Assembly (NCBI GenBank): GCA_049663345.1
Contig: JBATDG010000087.1
Location: 33,695-97,694 of the forward strand
Origin: Bacteroidota bacterium
Lineage (GTDB): Bacteria > Bacteroidota > Ignavibacteria > SZUA-365
Reading direction: 5' to 3'
DNA: 64,000 nt
Shown: piece after piece, positions 3,380 through 38,912 of the stretch
Layout: every line of letters starts with the position of its first letter
Numbering within the stretch: position 1 is the first letter of the stretch
Notes under the pieces: generated by a model
The model's input: only the letters and a program-made list of their open reading frames with translations
The model's database searches: none
Told to the model about the DNA's origin: nothing
Position numbers and translations under genes: made by a program

Positions 3380-4915
3380 CTATTCAAGATTTCCGATGGT
3401 ACTTTCTACGTTTTCCAAGATAGTATTTTTTTGCACTAGTTCAGCGGTGCGGCGAAGATCTTCAAACATCAAACGGTCTGCATCGAGGTGAGGTACAGAC
3501 TGTCGGATAATGTTATGCGCGACGCGCGTGCCGCGGCCGAGTCCCATTGGCAAATGGAAATCAAGAGCCTGAGCCGCGGTCATAAATTCCACCGCCAGCA
3601 CGTTCTCTACATTGCGCATGATCTGCCAGGCCTTTCGTGCGCCAATGGATCCCATGCTGTTGTGATCCTCCTGATTCGCAGAAGTAGGAATTGAATCCAC
3701 GCTCGCCGGATGCGAGAGAACCTTGTTTTCCGAAACCAGAGAGGCCGCAGTATACTGCGCGATCATAAGGCCGCTGTTGAGTCCTCCCTTTGCGGTGAGA
3801 AAGCGGGGGAGTCCGCTCAGTTTTCCATTCACCATCCGTTCAGTGCGGCGCTCGGAAATACTGGCGAACTCTGACAAGGCTATGCCGAGGAAATCCGCTG
3901 CAAGGGCCACCGGCTGTCCGTGAAAATTCCCACCTTCGACGAGAGATCGGGTCTCCGCGAATATGAGGGGATTATCCGTTGCCGAGTTGATTTCACAGAG
4001 CAATACATTTTCAACGTAACCGATCGCATCGCGCGAGGCCCCGTGAACCTGCGGCATGCAGCGCAAAGAGTACGCATCTTGCACCGCGTCATGTCCGTCC
4101 CGATGCGACTCGCGAATTTCACTCTCATCCAAAAGACGCAGGATATTGCGCGCGACCGCCTGCTGTCCGGGATGCGGCCGCACCGCATGCAGGATCGGGT
4201 TGCAGGCATTTGTGGTGCCGAGCAATCCTTCGAGCGTCATGGATCCCGCGATATCGAACTGCCGCGCAAGCGCTTTTGCCCTTGCGGTCGTCCAGCTCAA
4301 ATATGCCGTCATCATCTGCGTACCGTTGATCAAGGCCAGACCTTCCTTCGCAGCAAGCACCACGGGTTGTAGTCCATGTGCCTGCAGTGCCTCGGCTGCG
4401 GGACGCGGAGTCCCGGTCGCACTCCACACTGTTTCGAGTCCCATCATCCCGCAAACCAGGTGCGCGAGCTGCACCAGATCGCCGCTTGAGCCGACGGATC
4501 CTTGAGAAGGAATCACCGGAATGATATCGGCATTGAGCATCGCAAGCAGCAACTCGACGGTACTCACCCGTATCCCGGAATATCCTTTCGCAAGCGCGTT
4601 GGCGCGCAGCAGCATGAGGATGCGGGTGATATGTTTCGGCATGGGATCGCCGCAGCCGACTGCGTGGCTGATGATAAGGTTGCGCTGCAGCTGCTCGAGC
4701 TGATCGCTTCCGATATGCACATTGCTGAATTCACCAAAGCCCGTAGTGATGCCATACATGACCTTGTTGTCGCGCACCCATTCATCAACCAATGCACGCG
4801 ATGCCTGCATGCGCGGAAGGGCCTCGGCGGATAGCTCCACCGTGCAGTCCCCGGCCGCCGCAATGAGTACATCTTCCAGTGTGAGAGAATTGCCGTCAAT
4901 CGTGAGCGTTTTCAT
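3380..4915 (-). CDS. Aromatic amino-acid ammonia-lyase of the HAL/TAL/PAL family (MIO cofactor type). At 511 aa it is HAL-sized, and its substrate is not resolved
   Basis: Family signature GSVGSSGDLVQLAH (the MIO-forming triad reads Ser-Ser-Gly rather than Ala-Ser-Gly), plus the N-terminal GITTGFGEF motif. Confidence 0.8.
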   Translation of the reverse strand: MKTLTIDGNSLTLEDVLIAAAGDCTVELSAEALPRMQASRALVDEWVRDNKVMYGITTGFGEFSNVHIGSDQLEQLQRNLIISHAVGCGDPMPKHITRILMLLRANALAKGYSGIRVSTVELLLAMLNADIIPVIPSQGSVGSSGDLVQLAHLVCGMMGLETVWSATGTPRPAAEALQAHGLQPVVLAAKEGLALINGTQMMTAYLSWTTARAKALARQFDIAGSMTLEGLLGTTNACNPILHAVRPHPGQQAVARNILRLLDESEIRESHRDGHDAVQDAYSLRCMPQVHGASRDAIGYVENVLLCEINSATDNPLIFAETRSLVEGGNFHGQPVALAADFLGIALSEFASISERRTERMVNGKLSGLPRFLTAKGGLNSGLMIAQYTAASLVSENKVLSHPASVDSIPTSANQEDHNSMGSIGARKAWQIMRNVENVLAVEFMTAAQALDFHLPMGLGRGTRVAHNIIRQSVPHLDADRLMFEDLRRTAELVQKNTILENVESTIGNLE

Positions 4916-30000: not shown

Positions 30001-32021
30001 TCGCGGGTCTCCGCCGTGCCATCGGAGGTGAGGCTTTTGTCGCCGCGGTGGAAGTCGAAGGGAAGTCGTTCGAGACATGGTATTCGCCGGTGTTCGGCGA
30101 CGGCGGGGAGGTCGAACACGTCATTGGTGTCGCTGTCGACATCACAAGCCGGAAGAAGACTGAACAGGAGCTCGCCCAGTACCGCGATCATCTTGAAGAA
30201 TTGGTCGAGGCGCGGACACTGGAACTCGAGCGTGCTAATGAGCGGCTGAAGCGATTCCGCTTTGCACTTGACAGCGCGGCCGACAACATCTACATCATCG
30301 ATCCGGAAACGATGAAGTATGTGGATCTCAACGAAAGCGCCGTCGAGGCTCTTGGATATGAACGTGAAGAATTGCTGACCATGGGTCCGTACGACGTGCA
30401 GGTGCATTCCGAAAAACAGGAGCATATGGAAACCTATGCTAAGGTGCGCGGGGGCACTCTCGAGGTCGGGATTTTTGAGACAGAGCATATGAAGAAAGAC
30501 GGCAGCCGCTTCCCTGTCGAGGTGTTTGTCCGCGCCTTCGAATCCGGTGATGCCCGGCTCCTCATCGCAACTGCTCGCGATGTCTCTCGCCGCCGCGCCG
30601 CTGAGCTGGCGCTGAAGGAATCCGAGGCGAAGTATCGCAACGTGTTGGAAAACGCGAATGAAGCCATCATCGTGCTTCAGGATAATCTGCTGCGTTTCTA
30701 CAATTACAAAGTCCTAGAGCTGACAGGTCTCTCTGATGCCGCTCTCAAGGATCTCCCCATCTTCGAATTTGTGCATCCTGATGATCACGCGCTACTTCGC
30801 CGCCAATATCAGGAGAGAGTCCGCGGCGGACTTCTGCCCGAGAGCTACGACGTAAGGATGTACGACAGCAACGGCACGATCAAGTGGATGGAAGTGCGCG
30901 ATGTGCTCATCACGTGGGACGGCAAGCCCGCGACACTGAATTTCTTCAACGACATCACAGCCAGGAAATATGCGGAGGATTACATCCGCTTCCAGGCTTC
31001 ACTGCTGAGCATCGTTCGCAACTCGGTTGTGGCACTTGACCAATCGGGCCGCGTTACCTATTGGAATTCCTTCGCGGAGACACTTTTCGGGTGGACCGCA
31101 CAGGAAGTCCAGGGCAGGAAGCTGAATGAATTCCCTACCTTCGGTCCCGAGTTCGAAACCGAGCTGCTTCCCTCAGTGAGAGCTCGCGGTCATTGGGAAG
31201 GCGAAGGCGAACTGCAGCGCAGCGATGGCACAATGCTCTCCGTGTATTCGATGTGGACCGTCATTATTCAGGACGATCAGCTGCGCGGCTACGTGGGAAT
31301 CGGTATGGATCTGTCGGAGAGGAAAAAGCTCGAGAAGGAATTGCTGCAATCCCAGAAGCTCGCCTCGCTCGGCATTCTATCCGAAGGCATTGCGCATGAA
31401 TTGAGGAATCCGCTAGGTTATGCCAGTTCCGCCGCCCAGCTCCTGATATCAAAAAAGGATCTGACCGAGGAGCAGCGGAAGAAATACAGCACAGTGATCC
31501 ACACAGGCGTTGACCGGGCGAATAAAATCGTCGAAAACCTGCTTCTCATCGGCAAGCCCAAGGGGCAGCTGATGAAAAAATCGCTCAATCTGATTGACAC
31601 TGTTCGTGAAGCGCTTTCCCTGATCTCCTCGCATCACAACGCCGCTGGCGTTCACATCGAGAAGCAATTCGAAGCAAAGGAACTCCTCGTGCTGGGAAAC
31701 AGGGAGATTCTCATACAACTCTTTTACAACCTGTTCACCAACGCTCTCGATGCCATGGCTGGCAGCGGAACGCTGCGGATTTGCGGTGAGCAGAAGAAAG
31801 GGCATGTCTATATCCGCGTCAGCGATACTGGTCCCGGTGTTCCCGAGCATATCGTAGAAAACATTTTCGATCCCTTCTTTACGACCTCCAAAACCGACAA
31901 AGGCGTCGGGCTTGGCCTCACGCTCTGCTATTTCATCATGGACGACCATGAAGGCCGTATCGAGCTGGATACCACAGCAGAAACAGGTGCAGCGTTCATT
32001 TTAATCTTCCCGGCCGTGTGA
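27048..32021 (+). CDS. Giant hybrid sensor histidine kinase (1657 aa): N-terminal receiver, at least 8 PAS/PAC repeats, HisKA and HATPase_c
   Basis: REC (LLDLHLPD), repeated PAS-like blocks, H-box LASLGILSEGIAHELRNPL, and N/G boxes near the C-terminus. Confidence 0.85.
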   Translation: MMTSDAPLHIFLIEDDPEQVAFLKVTLRTEQNSAYSLTHAASLGEAKVLLAELKPDVILLDLHLPDSEGLNTPREILALAPQIPIIIYSGNTDVELAIEAVRLGAQDYLLKGEAREPLLSRAMRYAIERKHTALELEQAHTILEERNAALEIARSELRSERDMFVSGPTILFRRDFTTGFPITFVSRNVSQFGFLQRDLMVEGFRYDSLVFSDDREGFRNLLTVRLSEGIENVEQEYRILDARGEIVWLHEVARIQRGADGEPIAQLAYVVDITRRRQAEKSLSSTRRRFDTILGSINEIVYEIDIHGRLLYISPAIERILGWEADGLIGQPFAELVVEEQREGWEESFARIVSGTVLACEFPLNAADGHEHVFQISARRQTDGTQVRSIAGVLTDITDRREMEHAIRNVRTQTQQYLDIAEVVFLSLDLSGSITLINKKGCQVLGYNEHELVGRDWFDLCIPEHIREETRAFFFRIVGGGETQTDVHENDVRTKSGEERLLRWHNSLMHDSRGAVIGMLSSGEDITDRRRIELEAKGSQELIDLALWGADLGAWEWDIHNDSITLNSRALSMLGYEAGQLPLFTQLREETLPIEDVSRLQEMMNAHLEGRSPFYQAETWIICRSGEWKWVLERGKVVEYDTAGAPLRVAGTYLDLTVRKYAEIALEDSEKKFRLLAENSSDIIWTVNADFELTFVSPSIEFVLGFTPEEMMDTDFFDAIDEDFLRDKKEQFITALRNSAARPPHDRTLRIEAPFVKKDGSILWVEVVATPILDHGGNLVSVHGNSRDIHYRRIAQQGLADSEGKYRLLVQNQTDLVIKMDLDGKFLFVSPSYCRMFGKTENELLLQPFFPMVHEDDRAAALDAMKKLFEAPFTSYVEQRALTQDGWRWLGWQDTAVLNDNDEVVAIIGVGRDVTERRMAERALIDSEKRLRTVISNLPVIMFTLNKDGKFTMSEGMGLESLGLTSGQVVGLSAFDVYANNPDVVAGLRRAIGGEAFVAAVEVEGKSFETWYSPVFGDGGEVEHVIGVAVDITSRKKTEQELAQYRDHLEELVEARTLELERANERLKRFRFALDSAADNIYIIDPETMKYVDLNESAVEALGYEREELLTMGPYDVQVHSEKQEHMETYAKVRGGTLEVGIFETEHMKKDGSRFPVEVFVRAFESGDARLLIATARDVSRRRAAELALKESEAKYRNVLENANEAIIVLQDNLLRFYNYKVLELTGLSDAALKDLPIFEFVHPDDHALLRRQYQERVRGGLLPESYDVRMYDSNGTIKWMEVRDVLITWDGKPATLNFFNDITARKYAEDYIRFQASLLSIVRNSVVALDQSGRVTYWNSFAETLFGWTAQEVQGRKLNEFPTFGPEFETELLPSVRARGHWEGEGELQRSDGTMLSVYSMWTVIIQDDQLRGYVGIGMDLSERKKLEKELLQSQKLASLGILSEGIAHELRNPLGYASSAAQLLISKKDLTEEQRKKYSTVIHTGVDRANKIVENLLLIGKPKGQLMKKSLNLIDTVREALSLISSHHNAAGVHIEKQFEAKELLVLGNREILIQLFYNLFTNALDAMAGSGTLRICGEQKKGHVYIRVSDTGPGVPEHIVENIFDPFFTTSKTDKGVGLGLTLCYFIMDDHEGRIELDTTAETGAAFILIFPAV

Positions 32022-32087
32022 CCTGCCGTAGTTAAACCGATCTAGCACACATAGCCCCTCCCGCCCCGGTCGGAGTGAGAAACAAGG

Positions 32088-32113
32088 AAAAAGTCCGCAT
32101 TTGCGGGCTTTTT
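32088..32113. terminator. Bidirectional rho-independent terminator (AAAAAG-hairpin-CTTTTT)
   Basis: CCGCA-TT-TGCGG stem flanked by an A-run and a T-run. Confidence 0.6.
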
Positions 32114-32175
32114 CCGTATGCATCGGTAGCAGAGAGACGACCGGGCTAGTCCGAAAGCACTATTCAATTCATTCC

Positions 32176-32195
32176 CTATGCAGATCCCTGCATAG
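32176..32195. promoter_or_regulatory. Perfect 8-bp inverted repeat CTATGCAG-ATCC-CTGCATAG inside a motif (CAATTCATTCCCTATGCAG) shared with the paralogous site at 34788..34835. It is a candidate operator
   Basis: Read directly. The paralogous intergenic region carries an expanded 16-bp palindrome built on the same TGCAG core. Confidence 0.5.
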
Positions 32196-32403
32196 TTTTT
32201 CAGTGCGCTGCATACTGCGAAGATTAACATTTTGTAAGATTCGTGCAGCATCATCATATGGATAACTGCTCCGATTTCCTTTCAGTTTTCAACCGTTGCT
32301 TTAGTGTTCGGCTCCTATCCTGTTGATTGACAACAGATCCGCATCACGGCAAGCAGGTCTAAATCCCCTATTTCAGGGGCAATTCCCCCCACATTGTGAA
32401 TTA

Positions 32404-32419
32404 TGGCACGATTTGTGAA
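32404..32419 (+). promoter_or_regulatory. Sigma-54-like -24/-12 promoter candidate (TGGCACGATTTGTGAA). The -24 box is perfect and the -12 box is degenerate
   Basis: TGGCACG sits about 55 nt upstream of the start codon at 32476. The paralogous position at 35014 has a full consensus. Confidence 0.4.
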
Positions 32420-32475
32420 CAAATAAGGGAGAATCGAAGACTAAGCTCATGATGTTTTATGAGGAAAGTGCTGTG

Positions 32476-34263
32476 ATGAAAAATCAGATACCGATTGGTA
32501 AAACAATTATCCTTGCAATTACACTATGCATGTTCGGATTCGGGACGCAGGCGAGTGCAGCAACACGGACTTGGTCCGCTTTTGCGGCTACCACTTCATG
32601 GGGGACTGCCTCAAATTGGGTTGAGAATGCAGTCCCAGCTTCTGGTGATGACGTTGTTTTCCTTAATTCCGCTACTGTGGTACTCGAGAGTGCGACTCAA
32701 ATCGGTACATTGACACTTTCCGCTGGTGCGGACGTCGGCTTCACCGCGAACGGCCTGCTAACCATCACAGGAACGCTTACCTTGGGTGCGGGATCAGAGA
32801 TCAATCTTGGGAATGGAACAGCCTCCTACCCGCTGCAATTAAATGGAAATATCCTTTTTGCTGATGGCAACAGTGCATCGGATCCTACTAGAATCTACTC
32901 TTCAGTCATCCCTTGGAAGCTTATCAAAATCAGCAGTGCTTCTCACATCTCCATGGGAGGAATTGCGAACGCTTACTTTGGTGATCATACGACGACGTTG
33001 ATCCAGCTAAATGCACAGCCATTCACTTCGGATGTTCGATTTGAGGGTAATCTTCAATTCACTACGACAAACAACATTCTGCTTGGGGCGAATAACTTAT
33101 ATCTGGGCAAGTCTTGCGAACTCACAGTTACTGCGGTATTCCCTAGTGGTGATGGATTTATTGCGACTGACGGTACCGCAGCAACTCCGCAAGGGACTGT
33201 GCGCCGTCAGTTTGATGCTGTAGCCGATTCATTTTATTTCCCTGTTGGCCCTGTCGGTGGACGAATGTCGCCGATCCGCATCAAAATTATTCCACCATCA
33301 ACTAGTGCTATCTTTACATCCGCTTCACCCTGGCCGTATATCTCTGTCCGCTGTTTGTTAAATTCGAGCGGATCGACAGGCGGACATCCGATGAATTTTG
33401 ATAATTCAAGAATCTGGGTGTATTGGCCTGTGAAGGGCGTCGGGATTTCGGAGCCTGCTTATCTTTCAGGCCGAATGTACCTCCATACGAATTATCGTAG
33501 CGGAGATCCTAAAATCTATTCTGCTCGTTGGACTCCGAACTACGAAGACCTCGGTTCGCTTGGAATATGGGATTTGACTGGCTCCTTACCCGGAACGACA
33601 ACAGGGAATACTCGGGAGGTGCCCTTTTCTGGATGCCCGGGTTTCGGAGACTTTAATATTGGAACAGGAATTGCCGGCGATCCTCTTCCCGTCGAACTCA
33701 CTTCCTTCAGCGCCCGCTACATTGATCGTTCGGTGCGGTTGAACTGGAACACAGCGACGGAGCTGAATAACTACGGCTTCTCGATCGAGCGTTCGCAGGA
33801 CAATGAGACATGGGAAGAAGTCGGCTTTGTGGAAGGCTACGGCACTTCGCTTAGTCCTAAGAGCTACACTCATACGGACATGCTGACGGATGACCTCGCG
33901 AAGGTTCCGCAGCTGGCCTATCGTCTGCGTCAGATCGATCGTGACGGCACCACGGATTACTCGAATATCGTGTTTGTGAAGACGGGCACATTGCCCGCGG
34001 GCGTAGAAATGTACGCTGCATATCCGAATCCCTTCAACCCCTCCACGACGCTGAGCTTTACGATTCAGGACCCTGCGACTGTGAATCTGAAGGTGTACAA
34101 TACCTTCGGTCAGGAAGTCGCAACCCTGCTGAGCAGCAGTGCGATGGATGCGGGCCTGCACACGGTCTCCTTTAATGGAGAGCAGCTCCCGAGCGGCGTG
34201 TACATGGCAGTGCTGGAGGCGAACGGTACGCTGCAGCAGCAAAAGTTTGTGCTCAACAAGTGA
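32476..34263 (+). CDS. Adhesin-like secreted protein: signal peptide, beta-helix-like N-terminal repeats, conserved pre-CTD module and a T9SS C-terminal sorting domain
   Basis: Signal peptide MKNQIPIGKTIILAITLCMFGFGTQASA. N-terminal TRTWSAFAATTSWGTASNWVENAVPASGDDVVF (autotransporter-passenger-like repeat). LNWNTATELNNYGFSIERS module. C-terminal YPNPFNPSTTLSFTI...GVYMAVL tail. Confidence 0.75.
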   Translation: MKNQIPIGKTIILAITLCMFGFGTQASAATRTWSAFAATTSWGTASNWVENAVPASGDDVVFLNSATVVLESATQIGTLTLSAGADVGFTANGLLTITGTLTLGAGSEINLGNGTASYPLQLNGNILFADGNSASDPTRIYSSVIPWKLIKISSASHISMGGIANAYFGDHTTTLIQLNAQPFTSDVRFEGNLQFTTTNNILLGANNLYLGKSCELTVTAVFPSGDGFIATDGTAATPQGTVRRQFDAVADSFYFPVGPVGGRMSPIRIKIIPPSTSAIFTSASPWPYISVRCLLNSSGSTGGHPMNFDNSRIWVYWPVKGVGISEPAYLSGRMYLHTNYRSGDPKIYSARWTPNYEDLGSLGIWDLTGSLPGTTTGNTREVPFSGCPGFGDFNIGTGIAGDPLPVELTSFSARYIDRSVRLNWNTATELNNYGFSIERSQDNETWEEVGFVEGYGTSLSPKSYTHTDMLTDDLAKVPQLAYRLRQIDRDGTTDYSNIVFVKTGTLPAGVEMYAAYPNPFNPSTTLSFTIQDPATVNLKVYNTFGQEVATLLSSSAMDAGLHTVSFNGEQLPSGVYMAVLEANGTLQQQKFVLNK

Positions 34264-34302
34264 GAGTGGAAAGAGAGAGAGCACATTAGCCGAAGACGTG
34301 AA

Positions 34303-34326
34303 GGCGGGGTTTTGAGAGGCCCCGCC
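34303..34326 (+). ncRNA. Conserved stem-loop in the cargo 3' region (GGCGGGG-TTTTGAGAGG-CCCCGCC) with no downstream U-tract
   Basis: The paralogous hairpin at 36927..36960 keeps the loop (TTGTGAGAGG) while both stem arms change in a compensatory way. Confidence 0.5.
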
Positions 34327-34376
34327 TCTCACGCATTCTCTGAAGAATTTGGAAGGAAACAGGTTGGAAACAGTGA

Positions 34377-34691
34377 ATGCAAATGGGAATCGATCAGCGG
34401 AGCAGAGTTATAATGGAGATACCGTTTTCGTTTTCGCAGTATGCGTATCCGTTGAACCCAAGTGCGACCGTGAGCTTTACCCTGGAAGAACAACAGGAAG
34501 TCTCCTTGAGGATTTATAACACGTTCGGACAGGTAGTGCACACGCTCTACGAAAACGTTCAGATGAAAGCCGGATACCATGAATTGAGGCTCTACGGCGA
34601 AACCTTCCCCTCAGGTGGATGCTACGCCAGGCTTCATACAAAAAATGGAGTTCAGCAGCGCACATTGGTGCTGAGCACCGACAACAACTGA
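34377..34691 (+). CDS. CTD-only minigene: a free-standing T9SS C-terminal sorting domain (104 aa) with no signal peptide and no cargo domain
   Basis: The whole ORF matches the Por-tail (YAYPLNPSATVSFTL...GGCYARL). It is about 80% identical to the second minigene at 37051..37365, and both ORFs are intact. Alternative start M13 (34413). Confidence 0.55.
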   Translation: MQMGIDQRSRVIMEIPFSFSQYAYPLNPSATVSFTLEEQQEVSLRIYNTFGQVVHTLYENVQMKAGYHELRLYGETFPSGGCYARLHTKNGVQQRTLVLSTDNN

Positions 34692-34736
34692 CCCCTGAGG
34701 CTACAACCAAGGTAGGTTGATAAAGATTGAGAGGAG

Positions 34737-34766
34737 AAAAAAGTCCGCCGCAAGCGGGCTTTTTTC
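34737..34766. terminator. Bidirectional rho-independent terminator
   Basis: A-run, stem AGUCCGC/GCGGGCU with loop CGCAA, then a T-run. Confidence 0.6.
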
Positions 34767-34801
34767 TTGTTACAGGGTGGAGGTATGCAATTCATTCCCT
34801 A

Positions 34802-34835
34802 TGCAGTGGATTGCATATCTATGCAATCCACTGCA
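34802..34835. promoter_or_regulatory. Perfect 16-bp inverted repeat TGCAGTGGATTGCATA-TC-TATGCAATCCACTGCA, preceded by the shared CAATTCATTCCCTATGCAG motif. It is a candidate operator
   Basis: Read directly. Confidence 0.5.
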
Positions 34836-35013
34836 TGCTATTTTCATTAAGATCACATATAAATAATCACGGGTGCGATTTAGGAAAAAGATGCTATATC
34901 TTAAATTACCAGTTGGAGGAAGCTGGCTATCTCGTTGTTTAGCTTTATCTAGCCGCTCATCTCATGAGGGCGTCAATGAGGACAAAGCATATCTTCAATA
35001 GAACGGATACTTT

Positions 35014-35029
35014 TGGCACGTTTTATGCA
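35014..35029 (+). promoter_or_regulatory. Sigma-54 -24/-12 promoter (TGGCACGTTTTATGCA), with the GG and GC dinucleotides at consensus spacing
   Basis: Matches TGGCAC-N5-TTGCA at every position except one. It lies 60 nt upstream of the start at 35090. Confidence 0.6.
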
Positions 35030-35089
35030 TTTGTTAAGATCAAATACGAATAGACGTGATGCATTTCAGTAAGGCAAGAAATACTAACC

Positions 35090-36891
35090 ATGCAGAAATA
35101 TAGACTGTTTGTGAAAATCGGCCTGCTGGCGGCAATCCTTTTCTATATGGGACTCGGATCTGACGCCTTCGCTGTCACCCGGACCTGGGTAGGTGTCGGA
35201 CTTGGCAATTGGAACACTGCTCTCAACTGGAGGCCTAGCAGCGTCTCGGGTATTACCGGAAACACCGGTGATGCCGTGATTATTAACACCGTCTCGACGA
35301 TTACCATGAATGCTTCTTCAAACATCACGATCGCATCATTGCCCATTTCTGCGTCGAGTGTTGGACTCATTTCGGATAAAAAGATAACCACAGGGTCATT
35401 GACGGTTTCAGGTTCACTTGTTCTCAGCTATGTGAGTGCTGGAGGTGCGGCGAACAATATTTTTGATATCACCGGTGCAATGAGCCTTACTGCTCCGGTA
35501 TTATCTCTCGCTCGGGTTCCTGGGTGAGTACGGATGTCAAGATAAATATCGGCAGGAGAGGTACAGGCACAATAACCATGGCGGCGATTGCGAATAATTA
35601 CATCGCCTACCATGTCAACACTAGTATTGCTCGCAAACCTGTCCTGCTTTCCGATGTGAGATTTGAAGGAGACATTAATCTGCCTTCAGGAATTTCTCTT
35701 GGCACTGATGACCTGTATCTAGGGATCAACGCAGACGTGCTTACTCCGAATGCTGAAATCGGTGACCCAGGGAACTGCATCGAAGTTTCCGGCGGGAATA
35801 CAACTCCCTCCGGTGTTGTACGCAAACAGTATACTGCCGTAAATGACGCGTTCACCTTTAATGTGAGTCCCGGTACCGGCCGGTTGTCGCCCATCACGAT
35901 CAAGGTCATCAGCCCGACGCCATCCTCCTCATTTACAAGTGCTGTTCCCTGGCCGCATATCTTTGTCCGCGTCGTTCTCAATAATGGTGGAAACGGCGGA
36001 CACCCCGCGAATCAGCAGTCGCAAAAAGTCGGGGTTCACTGGCCGGTTAAAGGCTACGGAATCAACACTCCGGTATATTTCTCCGGTGTAATGACTTCCC
36101 ATAACAACTACAGGAACGGATCAGCTAACGATCTGTATTCAGCCCGCTACGCTCCAAGCTACGAAGATAACCTTTTTAATAGCGGTTGGGACCTCACCGG
36201 AACACAGCAAGTCACGACTACGAGCGGTGACCTTCGAAGCGTCCCGTTTAACGGCTTCCCCGGCTTTGGTGATTTCACCATCGGTTTTGGAGATCCCTTT
36301 GGCGGCGACCCTGTACCCGTCGAGCTCACTTCCTTCAGCGCACGCTATATCGATGGTTCGGTTCGCTTGAACTGGAATACCGCGACCGAGCTTAATAACT
36401 TCGGCTTCGCCATCGAGCGTTCGCAGGATTCGAAGAACTGGGAAGAAGTCGGCTTCGTGCAGGGCTACGGAACTTCCAGCAGCCCGAAGAGCTATTCGCA
36501 TACCGATGTGCTTACGGACGACCTTGCACGCACTCCGCAGCTCGCTTACCGTCTGCGTCAGATGGATCGCGACGGCACAATTGATTACTCGAACATCGTT
36601 TTTGTCAAAACGGGCGAACTGCCCGCCGGCGTCGAACTTTACGCTGCCTATCCGAATCCCTTCAACCCCGCAACTACGATCAGCTTTACTGTCAAGGAGT
36701 CTGCGAACGTAAACCTGAAGGTGTACAACACCTTCGGTCAGGTAGTCGCGACCCTGCTCAGCAACAGCTCAATGGATGCCGGCCTGCACACGATGTCGTT
36801 CAACGGAAATGACCTTCCGAGCGGCGTGTACATGGCAGTGCTTGAGGCGAGCGGTGAACTGCAGCAGCAGAAGCTTGTGCTCAACAAGTGA
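35090..36891 (+). pseudogene. Paralogue of cargo gene 32476..34263. It is split by a frameshift near 35520 into ORFs 35090..35527 (signal peptide plus N-terminus) and 35524..36891 (beta-helix, pre-CTD module, T9SS CTD)
   Basis: The two ORFs jointly align along the full length of the 604-aa paralogue (145+455 aa). The frame changes from phase 2 to phase 1. This could be a genuine pseudogene, a sequencing error or programmed slippage. Confidence 0.55.
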
Positions 36892-36926
36892 GAGTGGAAG
36901 AGGTGAGTGAGCACAATTAATCGATA

Positions 36927-36960
36927 CGCGAGGCGGAGTTGTGAGAGGCTCCGCCTCGCG
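36927..36960 (+). ncRNA. Conserved stem-loop (CGCGAGGCGGAG-TTGTGAGAGG-CTCCGCCTCGCG), paralogue of 34303..34326
   Basis: Same loop sequence with covarying stems. Confidence 0.5.
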
Positions 36961-37050
36961 TAAGATTTAAAGTGAAAGACGGACTGGGGAATTAGGAATT
37001 ACGAATTAAGAATTACGAATTACGAACTTTGAAGAAGCAGGAAAGAGTTA

Positions 37051-37365
37051 ATGGAGCTGGGAATGGAATCGCGGAACAGAGAAAAGATGGATATTCCGTT
37101 TACATTTTCGCAGTATGCGTATCCGTTGAACCCGAGCGCAACTCTGAGTTTCACCCTTGACGAAGCACAGGAAGTGTCGCTGAAAATTTACAACATGTTC
37201 GGACAGGTGGTGCGTACGCTCTACGAAAGGGTTCAGATGAAAGCCGGGTACCATGAATTGAGGCTCTATGGAGAGACCTTTCCGGCCGGAGGTTGTTACG
37301 CGCGGCTCCACACAACAAAGGGAGTTCAGCAGCGCACGTTGATGCTGAGCACCGAGAATTCCTGA
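37051..37365 (+). CDS. CTD-only minigene 2 (104 aa, free-standing T9SS C-terminal sorting domain)
   Basis: AGGAAAG ribosome-binding site 7 nt upstream of the ATG. The sequence FSQYAYPLNPSATLSFTL...GGCYARL is about 80% identical to 34377..34691. Confidence 0.55.
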   Translation: MELGMESRNREKMDIPFTFSQYAYPLNPSATLSFTLDEAQEVSLKIYNMFGQVVRTLYERVQMKAGYHELRLYGETFPAGGCYARLHTTKGVQQRTLMLSTENS

Positions 37366-37412
37366 CCCTTGATGGTCGGCCGGGTGAGTTGACGAAGAGA
37401 GAGATTGAAGTG

Positions 37413-37456
37413 AAAAAAAGTCCGCCGTACGCAGTTTGCCGTAGGCGGACTTTTTT
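37413..37456. terminator. Bidirectional rho-independent terminator
   Basis: A7-GTCCGCC...GGCGGAC-T6. Confidence 0.7.
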
Positions 37457-37529
37457 CTTACGGTTGCTGATGTGAATTCGGAGTTCCCTATATTATGTAC
37501 GGAGTACCTAACGGAAGCAGCGCCGCAAC

Positions 37530-38912
37530 ATGCCGGAAAAAGAGAAAATTGATGTCCTGATTGTCGATGATGAGGAGCAGATCTGTTTCGTGCTCACTCA
37601 TCTGCTTAAAGTGCATGGCTATGGCTCACGCATAGCGCCCCGCGGAGACCGTGCACTGCGGATGATTGAGGATCAGCGCCCGGATCTCATTATCATGGAT
37701 ATTCGGATGCCGGGAATGAGCGGCTTTGATGTGCTCGAACGTATCCGGGAGTTTGATACAGATGTTCCTGTAATCCTGATGACAGCCCTGCCGGGGGTGC
37801 GTGATGCAGTCCACGCAATGAAGGCGACGGCTTTCGACTACATTGCAAAACCATTCGACAATAACCACATGGTCGGAACAGTTGAACGCGCACTTAGTGT
37901 TGCAGCAGACCTGCGCCGGAATGAAAAATATACAGACCGGTCGCCGGAGCCGCTTCACCCGCTGTTCGCGGCTATGGGCAGCAGCCTGGCCGTACGAAGA
38001 CTTGCGCGTGAAAGCGGACGAATCGCGAATTCTGCTAATCCGGTAATGATCATTGGAGAAATCGGAACAGGCAAGCGCCACCTCGGAAAAATTCTTCATA
38101 CACTCAGTGAACGCCAGGGATCCTTTCTCAACATCGATTGCACAGGCGCTAGCGAATTGATCCTGCGGCAGGAACTGTTCGGTTCCGCTATCGGAACCGG
38201 GCACCGAGGGAAGCTTGAACTGGCGGATCAGGGCACGCTTCTTCTTGATGAGGTTTCAGAGATTCCGTGGACGTTCCAGGAAATCCTCTCCGAAGCCCTG
38301 CATCAAAAGGAATTCTCCGCACCAGCCAGCGAAGAGATGATCCCGATTGCATGCCGACTTCTTTTCGCTTCGAGTATTGCACCGGATAGAGGTATCGATG
38401 GCAACTTCCTGACGCCTCGTTTCCGTGAGCTTTTCGGAGAAGCGATCATCGAAGTGCCGCCGCTCCGGGAACGGCATGAGGACATCCCCATCCTCGCTCT
38501 GGAATTTCTCCAGGATGCGAACAGGGAGCTGGGGCGAAATATGGTAGTGATCTCGGATGCCGCACTCGAAAAGTTGGTTTCCTATCATTGGCCTGGAAAT
38601 GTGCATCAGCTTAAATCCACGATTCGGCGAGCCACTCTGACCTCCAAGGATACTATCGGGATCGATGACATCGATCTCCCGATTTCTCACCACGATGCAA
38701 CGATGGATGACGGTATTGCTGCAAGCGTCGCTGTCGCCGGCGCTCCGCTGAAGGAACAAGTGAAGCGGCATATTGCCGAGGTCGAAAGGCAGCTCGTCTT
38801 TGAAACACTGCGGCAAACTGGCTGGAATAAAGCCCAGGCCTCAAGACTTCTGGGAGTTACGTATAAAACATTATTGAAAAAAGTCAGCGATTATGGCCTC
38901 GAACGACAATAA
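37530..38912 (+). CDS. Sigma-54-interaction-domain response regulator homologue (REC-AAA+-HTH) whose GAFTGA loop is deleted or degenerate
   Basis: REC (DLIIMDIRMPG), Walker A GEIGTGKR and a Fis-type HTH. The segment equivalent to ESELFGHEKGAFTGA reads QELFGSAIGTGHRG. Confidence 0.8.
   Translation: MPEKEKIDVLIVDDEEQICFVLTHLLKVHGYGSRIAPRGDRALRMIEDQRPDLIIMDIRMPGMSGFDVLERIREFDTDVPVILMTALPGVRDAVHAMKATAFDYIAKPFDNNHMVGTVERALSVAADLRRNEKYTDRSPEPLHPLFAAMGSSLAVRRLARESGRIANSANPVMIIGEIGTGKRHLGKILHTLSERQGSFLNIDCTGASELILRQELFGSAIGTGHRGKLELADQGTLLLDEVSEIPWTFQEILSEALHQKEFSAPASEEMIPIACRLLFASSIAPDRGIDGNFLTPRFRELFGEAIIEVPPLRERHEDIPILALEFLQDANRELGRNMVVISDAALEKLVSYHWPGNVHQLKSTIRRATLTSKDTIGIDDIDLPISHHDATMDDGIAASVAVAGAPLKEQVKRHIAEVERQLVFETLRQTGWNKAQASRLLGVTYKTLLKKVSDYGLERQ

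Follow-up and report, generated by a model that had tools for sequence, protein, structure and literature searches.

A selected minigene in an Ignavibacteria contig belongs to a leaderless, lineage-restricted family derived from the type IX secretion C-terminal domain

What is a gene that encodes nothing but the tail of a secreted protein? The question is raised by a 64,000-nucleotide (nt) stretch, hereafter the window, of contig JBATDG010000087.1 (positions 33,695 to 97,694 of the forward strand, assembly GCA_049663345.1) from a bacterium assigned to the Ignavibacteria within Bacteroidota. Two short open reading frames (ORFs), minigene 1 and minigene 2, here resemble the C-terminal domain (CTD) of proteins exported by a type IX secretion system (T9SS), and each lies downstream of a gene for such a protein, hereafter the cargo. 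A preliminary description of minigene 2 had presented it as an intact, "CTD-only" ORF of 104 amino acids (aa), built like minigene 1, and had taken the retained length of the two copies as an argument against decay. Here, I show that minigene 2 is a member of a conserved gene family in an apparently regulated cassette and is not peculiar to the window; that it is a real gene maintained by selection can be held with near certainty. Judged from its pattern of codon change it is a protein-coding gene, presumably expressed, under strong purifying selection, and its product, as its sequence indicates, is derived from a T9SS CTD while not being a T9SS substrate itself. The family is an undescribed and lineage-restricted one, the members of which are 92-111 aa long, each a single T9SS-CTD-like β-sandwich.

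The case for selection begins with the comparison of the two copies. As had been stated, both ORFs are of 104 aa, and they align without a gap, with 81 identities (78%, near the 80% or so first proposed) and 95 positives among the 104 positions. The duplicated DNA is wider than the minigenes (33671-34750 against 36299-37427, 76% identity) and takes in the 3' third of the large gene upstream together with spacer, minigene and terminator. A codon-wise count of differences between the two copies, which the preliminary description had proposed as a check, gives by the Nei-Gojobori method 34 synonymous and 28 non-synonymous differences, with synonymous (dS) and non-synonymous (dN) distances of 0.84 and 0.12 and a dN/dS of 0.149; the differences fall at codon positions 1, 2 and 3 in the numbers 11, 11 and 40. 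The other sense frames give dN/dS values above 1.5, and one antisense frame is also low, but only because it shares its wobble positions with the sense frame.

Nor do the orthologues show the excess of non-synonymous change or the disrupted frames that had been named as grounds for doubt. Two loci from a related species (L025 and L026, 80-84% nucleotide identity) have both cassettes with their order kept, and the positional orthologue of minigene 2 (L025:4585-4899) is an intact ORF of 104 aa with a dN/dS of 0.093; over all cross-comparisons of the window and L025 copies dN/dS is 0.05-0.18, at dS 0.5-1.5. Among 33 non-redundant copies of the family, from loci of about ten species-representative genomes plus other assemblies, the ratio of non-synonymous to synonymous differences per site (pN/pS) is 0.28, and the sense frame is open in every one, as against 14 of the 33 for the best antisense frame. 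The mean identity within the minigene family (66%, versus 61% among the cargo CTDs) makes it about as conserved as the cargo domains, or slightly more so.

A side observation concerns the silent distances themselves. Minigene 2 stands at dS 1.2-1.5 from all its relatives, minigene 1 and the two L025 copies being at about 0.5 from one another; a flanking heptamer repeat nonetheless marks minigene 2 as the positional orthologue of the second L025 copy. The pattern suggests either gene conversion among the other copies or a faster silent change in minigene 2.

The exact start of the gene is a separate matter. Minigene 2 has in-frame ATGs at 37051, 37063 and 37087, the second of which opens a 100-aa entry at NCBI from a metagenome-assembled genome (P0001). 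Compared with minigene 1, dN/dS is about 1.1 in codons 1-13 and 0.10 in codons 14-104, and some orthologues carry in-frame stops inside the region of the first 12 codons. The codon aligned to 37087 is an ATG (M-E/D-I-P-F) in 21 of the 33 family copies, most of which have GGAG, often as GCGGAGCA, 4-12 nt before it. In four of these 21 (L012, the second L011 copy, L015 and L019) an upstream in-frame ATG is absent within the open frame, L012 reading ...AGA TAA ATA ATG at this point, and the second copies in L016 and L010 have no in-frame ATG nearby upstream. A second sub-clade is without the 37087-type ATG and starts with M-F-(D/T/N), 16 codons upstream. Many of the database members are 92 aa long, the length that minigene 2 would have from the ATG at 37087, which is the best-supported start on these comparisons.

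Because the first 12 or so codons evolve neutrally (dN/dS about 1.1) and the core does not (0.10), the equal length of 104 codons is not itself under selection. The earlier argument from retained length thus survives in its conclusion, the gene not being in decay (dN/dS 0.15), and fails in its premise. As to the flanking signals then proposed, the purine-rich AGGAAAG is present (37039-37045), ending 5 nt rather than 7 nt before the ATG at 37051, and the strong terminator is real.

The homology with T9SS CTDs is clear, although the curated models do not capture it. In BLASTP minigene 2 matches the CTD of cargo 2 with 41% identity over 82 aa (E = 9e-21), and to this extent the label "CTD-only" was apt; it went too far in that the ORF scores below the curated thresholds (15.5 bits for PF18962, with a cut-off of 27, and 17.0 bits for TIGR04183, with a cut-off of 23) and does not look like a secretion substrate, whereas the neighbouring cargo genes exceed both cut-offs, at 32.9-41 and 38-40.3 bits respectively. 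Matches of minigene 2 to FlgD_ig (17.7 bits) and to CHU_C in the Pfam and NCBIfam scans are likewise sub-threshold. AlphaFold2 predicts a seven-strand β-sandwich (predicted local distance difference test score, pLDDT, 78, above 90 in the core), which agrees with the immunoglobulin (Ig)-like sandwich of about 80 aa and 5-8 strands expected of such a CTD. Sequence searches of solved structures gave no match for cargo 1 and only a chance match for the family profile (E = 0.62), and PADLOC and PHROGs returned nothing for minigene or cargo.

The minigene family has also acquired features of its own. The Y-P-N-P-F of the cargo CTDs has become Y-A-Y-P-L, and a near-invariant His55 and Cys82 (motif G-G-C-Y-A-R-L) have been gained where the cargo CTDs have Ala and Val. 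The last strand, V-Q-Q-R-T-L-V-L, is conserved and is followed by a variable tail of 4-10 residues, with Arg for the Lys of the cargo; cargo genes instead end with ..V-L-N-K-stop. Two further residues are invariant in the family, His68, which occurs in the cargo CTDs as well, and Glu41; together with His55 and Cys82 they might form a metal or redox site.

Export of the product can be considered in the same way. A stop codon lies six codons before the ATG at 37051 (directly before the ATG in copy 1), the stop-to-stop frame of minigene 2 being 110 codons, and a hydrophobic N-terminus was found in none of 28 members, in which the maximal 10-residue hydropathy is at most 1.47, versus 2.5-2.9 for the cargo signal peptides. 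With a stop upstream and no hydrophobic N-terminus, the product would have no entry to the general secretory (Sec) pathway and so would not be a T9SS substrate. A T9SS CTD sits at the C-terminal end of a passenger provided with a Sec signal peptide; here the domain is the whole protein. The product very probably stays in the cytoplasm.

The reach of the family is narrow. A word-indexed search of 5.8 billion proteins gave 65 clusters (at 90% identity) of similar small proteins, 62-153 aa long (mostly 92-114) and 56-100% identical, all from uncultured genomes labelled Bacteroidota or Ignavibacteria; the entries are called "hypothetical" and list no Pfam domain. At 50% identity the family comes to about 6-8 clusters, and the loci fetched from 185,579 species-representative genomes number 13, from about ten of them. 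A family profile built from 28 members and run on the reading frames of the window and of 23 fetched loci gives bimodal scores, namely 117-187 bits for the 33 minigenes and 37-66 bits for 30 cargo CTDs. With 180.7 bits (family members scoring above 115) and the family signature (E-I-P-F-x-F, P-L-N-P-S-A-T, G-Y-H-E-L-x-L-Y-G and G-G-C-Y-A-R-L, the signature residues being invariant), minigene 2 is a member. Against 1.84 billion representatives the same profile has 15,492 matches; the single-stretch matches among those listed are mostly to the extreme C-terminus of larger proteins, and several of the best are 603-678 aa long, the three inspected (P0092, P0103 and P0109) belonging to the cognate cargo family. 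In the literature searched, no paper was found on leaderless or stand-alone CTD proteins, or on control of T9SS cargo by sigma-54.

As far as can be read from the DNA, each minigene closes a cassette which comprises, in this order, a dyad element, a sigma-54-like promoter, the cargo gene, a GC hairpin, the minigene and a terminator (Table 1).

Table 1. Coordinates of the features of the two cassettes and of the flanking genes, in positions of the window
Feature	Position	Strand	Basis or remark
Minigene 2, maximal ORF, 104 aa, ATG start	37051..37365 (stop codon included)	+	sequence
Minigene 2, best-supported coding unit, 92 aa, starts MDIPFTF, conserved family core	37087..37365	+	dN/dS, family ATG alignment, AlphaFold2 model
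Intrinsic terminator closing cassette 2 (A-tract, GC stem ~37420-37450, TTTTTT)	37410..37461	+	free energy (dG) -26.6 kcal/mol, z = -4.4 versus shuffles
Minigene 1, paralogue, 104 aa, own terminator ~34734-34768	34377..34691	+	sequence
Cargo gene 1, 604 aa, its type A T9SS CTD scoring above threshold	32449..34263	+	curated models
Cargo gene 2, with signal peptide, an N-terminal region that varies, and ~200 conserved C-terminal aa with a type A T9SS CTD	35090..36891	+	
Dyad element, cassette 2, CAATTCATTCCCTATGCA-N6-TGCATA..TATGCA-N6-TGCAT (two dyads)	34788..34837	+	
Dyad element, cassette 1	32165-32216	+	motif scan
Sigma-54-type promoter-like motif TGGCACGTTTTATGCA, ~60 nt before cargo 2 ATG	35014..35029	+	
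Weaker sigma-54-like motif TGGCACGATTTGTGAA before cargo 1	32404-32419		
GA-rich element (GAGTGGAAGAG..GAGCACA) directly after cargo 2 stop	36892..36915	+	locus alignment
GA-rich element directly after cargo 1 stop	34264-34286		
GC-rich hairpin between cargo 2 stop and minigene 2, no U-tract	36925..36962	+	dG -31.9, z -7.1
Tandem heptamer (GAATTAC) x 5.4 in minigene 2 leader	36989..37026	+	shared with L025 orthologue, absent from copy 1
Antisense ORF, 87 aa, overlaps minigene 2	37048..37311	-	
Antisense ORF, 83 aa, overlaps minigene 1	34329..34580	-	
Hybrid histidine kinase, 1657 aa, REC and multi-PAS, no hydrophobic segment	27048..32021	+	upstream of cassette array
Sigma-54-dependent response regulator (REC, AAA+ Sigma54_activat, HTH_8), directly downstream	37530..38912	+	Pfam on locus L024, 100% identical to the window
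Soluble PAS histidine kinase, no hydrophobic segment	38949..40016	+	

This arrangement recurs across the family: 29 of the 33 minigenes are found 69-256 nt downstream of a same-strand cargo CTD reading frame, with a mixed frame relation and a hairpin in between. Between the two cargos of the window identity rises from 32% in the N-terminal 110 aa or so to 63% in the last 444 aa and about 85% in the last 200, a gradient which is consistent with a diversifying, surface-exposed N-terminal region borne on a conserved stalk and CTD. The frame of cargo 2 is broken near 35527 (35520-35530), leaving a 145-aa N-terminal ORF with the signal peptide and a 455-aa ORF in another frame; its orthologue in L025 and L026 is one intact gene of 613 aa. 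The sole other assembly with the break is 100% identical to the window over 12.3 kb and provides no independent confirmation; possible causes of the lesion are true pseudogenisation, a fault in the assembly and programmed frameshifting.

Upstream of the cargo, the dyad element has the consensus CAATTCATTCCCTATGCA-N6-TGCATA(G)-N3-4-TGCA-N6-TGCATA and occurs in 18 of the 24 sequences scanned, on the + strand only, mostly some 140-300 nt before the next cargo reading frame (about 50 nt in L004). It may be where an enhancer-binding protein docks, for which the sigma-54 response regulator next door is a plausible candidate. The sigma-54-type pattern, TGGCA(C/T)G-N4-(A/G)TGCA, is placed 60-75 nt before the cargo ATG; the same motif is seen at the same distance in L007 (twice), L013, L014 and L018, and L011 has a variant, TGGCGCGCTTTTTGCTG.

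Downstream of the cargo stop, the GA-rich element (GAGTGGAAGAGAGAGAGCACA in many loci) is largely invariant in seven aligned loci, is present in most cassettes and surpasses the adjoining coding sequence in conservation; an RNA element of the 3' untranslated region and a protein-binding site are the possibilities. The two copies of the window differ by indels, and an exact search with the 24 nt found no match elsewhere in the window. The hairpin that follows has its counterpart at the equivalent place in nearly all cassettes, the stem sequence varying between loci and the pairing being kept; in some loci, not in the window, a run of T makes it a full terminator. Its probable role in the window is that of a leaky terminator or of a stabiliser of the mRNA 3' end. 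Rfam, run on 32000-37600, gave only sub-threshold, terminator-like matches.

The leader of about 100 nt between hairpin and minigene is prone to tandem repeats. In L025 heptamer repeats are found at about 4500-4540, and its 1700-1850 region, at the orthologue of copy 1, has an insertion of about 150 nt with repeats containing GGAAAC/GGAAG; several GGA motifs stand just before the start. Such repeats may tune translation or promoter spacing.

The cassettes are enclosed by genes for signalling proteins. In the window the order is hybrid kinase, two cassettes, sigma-54 response regulator and PAS kinase, then the Mrp/ApbC, NifU and NAD kinase genes, with minigene 2 as the last gene of the cassette array, which has the hybrid kinase on one side and the sigma-54 regulator on the other; 15 or more other loci share this gene order. 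In 15 loci the last minigene has the regulator after it, the PAS kinase and the Mrp gene are there wherever the locus reaches far enough, and the hybrid kinase precedes the first cassette in five loci as well as in the window. From one to four cassettes lie between hybrid kinase and regulator; in three genomes the array is split into one part with the hybrid kinase and cassettes and another in which a cassette is accompanied by regulator and PAS kinase. By hydropathy, a transmembrane segment is found in none of the three signalling proteins.

Some minigenes are without an intact cargo. In L011 (5405-6320) the body of the second cargo is deleted and the minigene intact, the dyad element and the sigma-54-like promoter being joined to the last 40 or so codons of the cargo CTD, a decaying remnant. 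L022 has no cargo gene in its cassette, the minigene coming directly after the dyad element and a sigma-54-like motif, L028 has a divergent family member 220 nt after a hybrid-kinase-like gene, and in the window minigene 2 is intact beside the frame-broken cargo 2. These cases hint, at the level of gene arrangement, at a link of the minigene to the regulon and not to one particular cargo.

As an observation apart, L011 illustrates one way for a fragment with only the CTD to come about, and is also a case of a minigene that has survived the loss of its cargo.

On balance, I consider it somewhat more likely than not that in minigene 2, a selected, leaderless, CTD-derived gene of the cassette, the CTD fold has found new use as a binding module of the cytoplasm. 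The 3' end of a T9SS cargo family of about 600 aa would have given rise to a distinct and tightly conserved minigene family, the fold now serving the cassette by binding proteins in the cytoplasm. The amount of the product would track the transcription of the cassette, probably lowered by the hairpin, and the product would in turn exert feedback on the cytoplasmic proteins of the sigma-54 two-component system encoded on either side, be it a soluble kinase or the activator, possibly being titrated by unexported cargo CTD. Co-transcription of cargo and minigene, a binding partner and a regulatory effect are what I infer here. Among the conceivable functions a role in regulatory feedback is tentatively favoured, because of the invariant linkage with the regulators, the survival of minigenes without cargo and the precedent of PorA and PorY, to which I return below. 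A fuller scheme, which I regard as speculative, is that the leaderless CTD mimic binds the soluble PAS kinase or the sigma-54 activator, or is titrated by unexported cargo CTDs, so that the cell would gauge the production or export of cargo and tune the sigma-54-dependent transcription of its cassettes; by analogy, such a circuit would be the counterpart, working as a partner switch inside the cell, of the PorA-PorY pair in the periplasm.

Several points weigh against this interpretation. The presence of one minigene per cargo and the selection on both window copies fit a cargo-specific role at least equally, and for feedback one minigene copy would suffice. The cargo-less cases, which come from metagenome assemblies, could be recent lesions or assembly artefacts. 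The strict sigma-54-like motif stands before only 7 of 20 complete cargo genes, the site at 35014 and the weaker one at 32404 being counted among them; no promoter of the minigene itself was identified, and the hairpins which in some loci carry a T-run make the co-transcription of cargo and minigene uncertain. Structural searches found generic Ig-like sandwiches only. Finally, the precedent of PorA is conceptual, for the PorA circuit is a periplasmic one with a membrane kinase as its target, and everything here would be cytoplasmic.

Foremost among the alternatives is a cargo-specific cytoplasmic chaperone or holdase, a possible though rather unlikely explanation, which would pair with the cargo CTD or with the C-terminal 200 aa or so and keep the cargo competent for export before it reaches Sec. 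The near one-to-one pairing of cargo and minigene (29 of 33 copies) and the duplication of the cassette as a unit speak for it, as does the purifying selection on both window copies since they were duplicated; moreover, the last 200 aa or so of the cargo (about 85%) and the minigene (78%) are similarly conserved between the two cassettes. De Diego and colleagues are said to have described in 2016 that T9SS CTDs can dimerise by strand swapping. Yet intact minigenes occur with no cargo (L011 and L022) or beside a frame-broken one (the window), and Sec substrates are exported unfolded, which leaves a partner of the folded domain without an obvious role.

It has also to be asked whether the product could be a minimal T9SS substrate, or a periplasmic ligand in the manner of PorA, itself a small CTD protein which signals to PorY. 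For all the CTD homology that invites the comparison, this is highly improbable: the upstream stop and the non-hydrophobic N-termini of the 28 members make a signal peptide impossible, the neighbouring kinases have no periplasmic domain that could receive such a ligand, the ..VLNK-stop end is replaced by the variable tail, PNPF is altered and the scores are below the CTD cut-offs.

Still less likely is a functionless remnant, decaying after a partial tandem duplication of the cargo 3' end. The descent from the cargo CTD is clear, and the decaying remnant of about 40 codons in L011 shows that such fragments do arise at this locus; but a dN/dS of 0.05-0.18 at dS 0.5-1.5, a frame open in 33 of 33 copies, invariant signature residues and a conservation about that of functional cargo CTDs, or slightly higher (66% versus 61%), are not those of a decaying sequence. 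The selection tests and the 33 open frames effectively refute this explanation.

The idea that there is no separate gene, and that the ORF serves the cargo as a second C-terminus to which read-through, frameshifting or recombination would lead, or that what is conserved is an antisense ORF or an RNA element, hardly deserves credence: cargo 2 and minigene 2 do share a reading frame, and an 87-aa antisense ORF overlaps minigene 2, with one antisense frame of similarly low dN/dS, but homology to known proteins is clear for the sense product, Rfam has no match, the copies are in direct orientation and no recombinase is among the listed neighbouring genes. Read-through or fusion was rejected on the cargo-minigene frame relation, which may be 0, 1 or 2, and on the stops and the strong hairpin or terminator in the spacer of 69-256 nt; an antisense gene was rejected because even its best frame is open in only 14 of the 33 copies, while the sense frame is open in all of them. 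The antisense ORFs look like by-products of the sense codon pattern.

How do the minigenes compare with systems already known? In Flavobacterium johnsoniae, SprB is a cargo with a type B CTD and its gene lies beside that of SprF, of the PorP/SprF-like kind. T9SS shuttle proteins are described in PMC12618676. The cassettes are like pairs of the SprB-SprF type in that the gene of a secreted cargo has a small partner gene of its own behind it and the two have been duplicated together; unlike the minigene products, PorP/SprF-like proteins are outer-membrane β-barrels with signal peptides and are unrelated in sequence, and the cargos here are of type A, not of type B. Along another line, small proteins encoded in or beside a sigma-54-dependent unit are known to bind its activator and tune their own regulon, as PspA does with PspF and HrpV with HrpS. 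The likeness to the minigene is here one of concept only, with no relationship in sequence or fold.

By homology, the closest relative is the T9SS type A CTD (PF18962 Por_Secre_tail, TIGR04183), a domain of about 80-90 aa with a predicted seven-strand Ig-like sandwich, whose motifs N-P-(S/A)-T, G-x-H, G-x-Y-x-x-L and Q-Q the minigene retains. It differs in that the minigene product is the whole protein, has no Sec signal peptide, scores below the cut-offs, carries its own His55 and Cys82 and ends in a variable tail. From the viewpoint of annotation, such small ORFs ought to be called as genes and not dismissed as fragments; besides, the locus offers a handle on the regulation of surface-protein cassettes with variable N-termini in uncultured, Ignavibacteria-like bacteria.

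As to function, the nearest parallel is PorA of Porphyromonas gingivalis (PGN_0123), the CTD of which is a ligand of PorY, a sensor kinase, and activates the PorXY-SigP pathway (PMC12152298; PMC7712824). In both cases a small protein with a T9SS-type CTD is associated with two-component signalling, PorA by its activity and the minigene by its genomic tie to two-component regulators. PorA, however, is made with a signal peptide, is FimH-like in its N-terminal domain, is secreted and periplasmic, and acts through a membrane kinase on a pathway with an extracytoplasmic function (ECF) sigma factor, whereas the minigene product is leaderless and its neighbours are soluble PAS kinases and a sigma-54 activator, the link being one of gene order. 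T9SS CTDs are usually viewed as signals for secretion, to be cleaved and then discarded; the second role of the CTD of PorA, as the ligand of a kinase, was shown in 2025. That finding would be widened by a conserved family of CTD-like proteins which stand alone and lack a leader, and such a family suggests that in at least one lineage of the Fibrobacterota-Chlorobiota-Bacteroidota (FCB) group the CTD fold has been recruited for a non-secretory and probably intracellular role.

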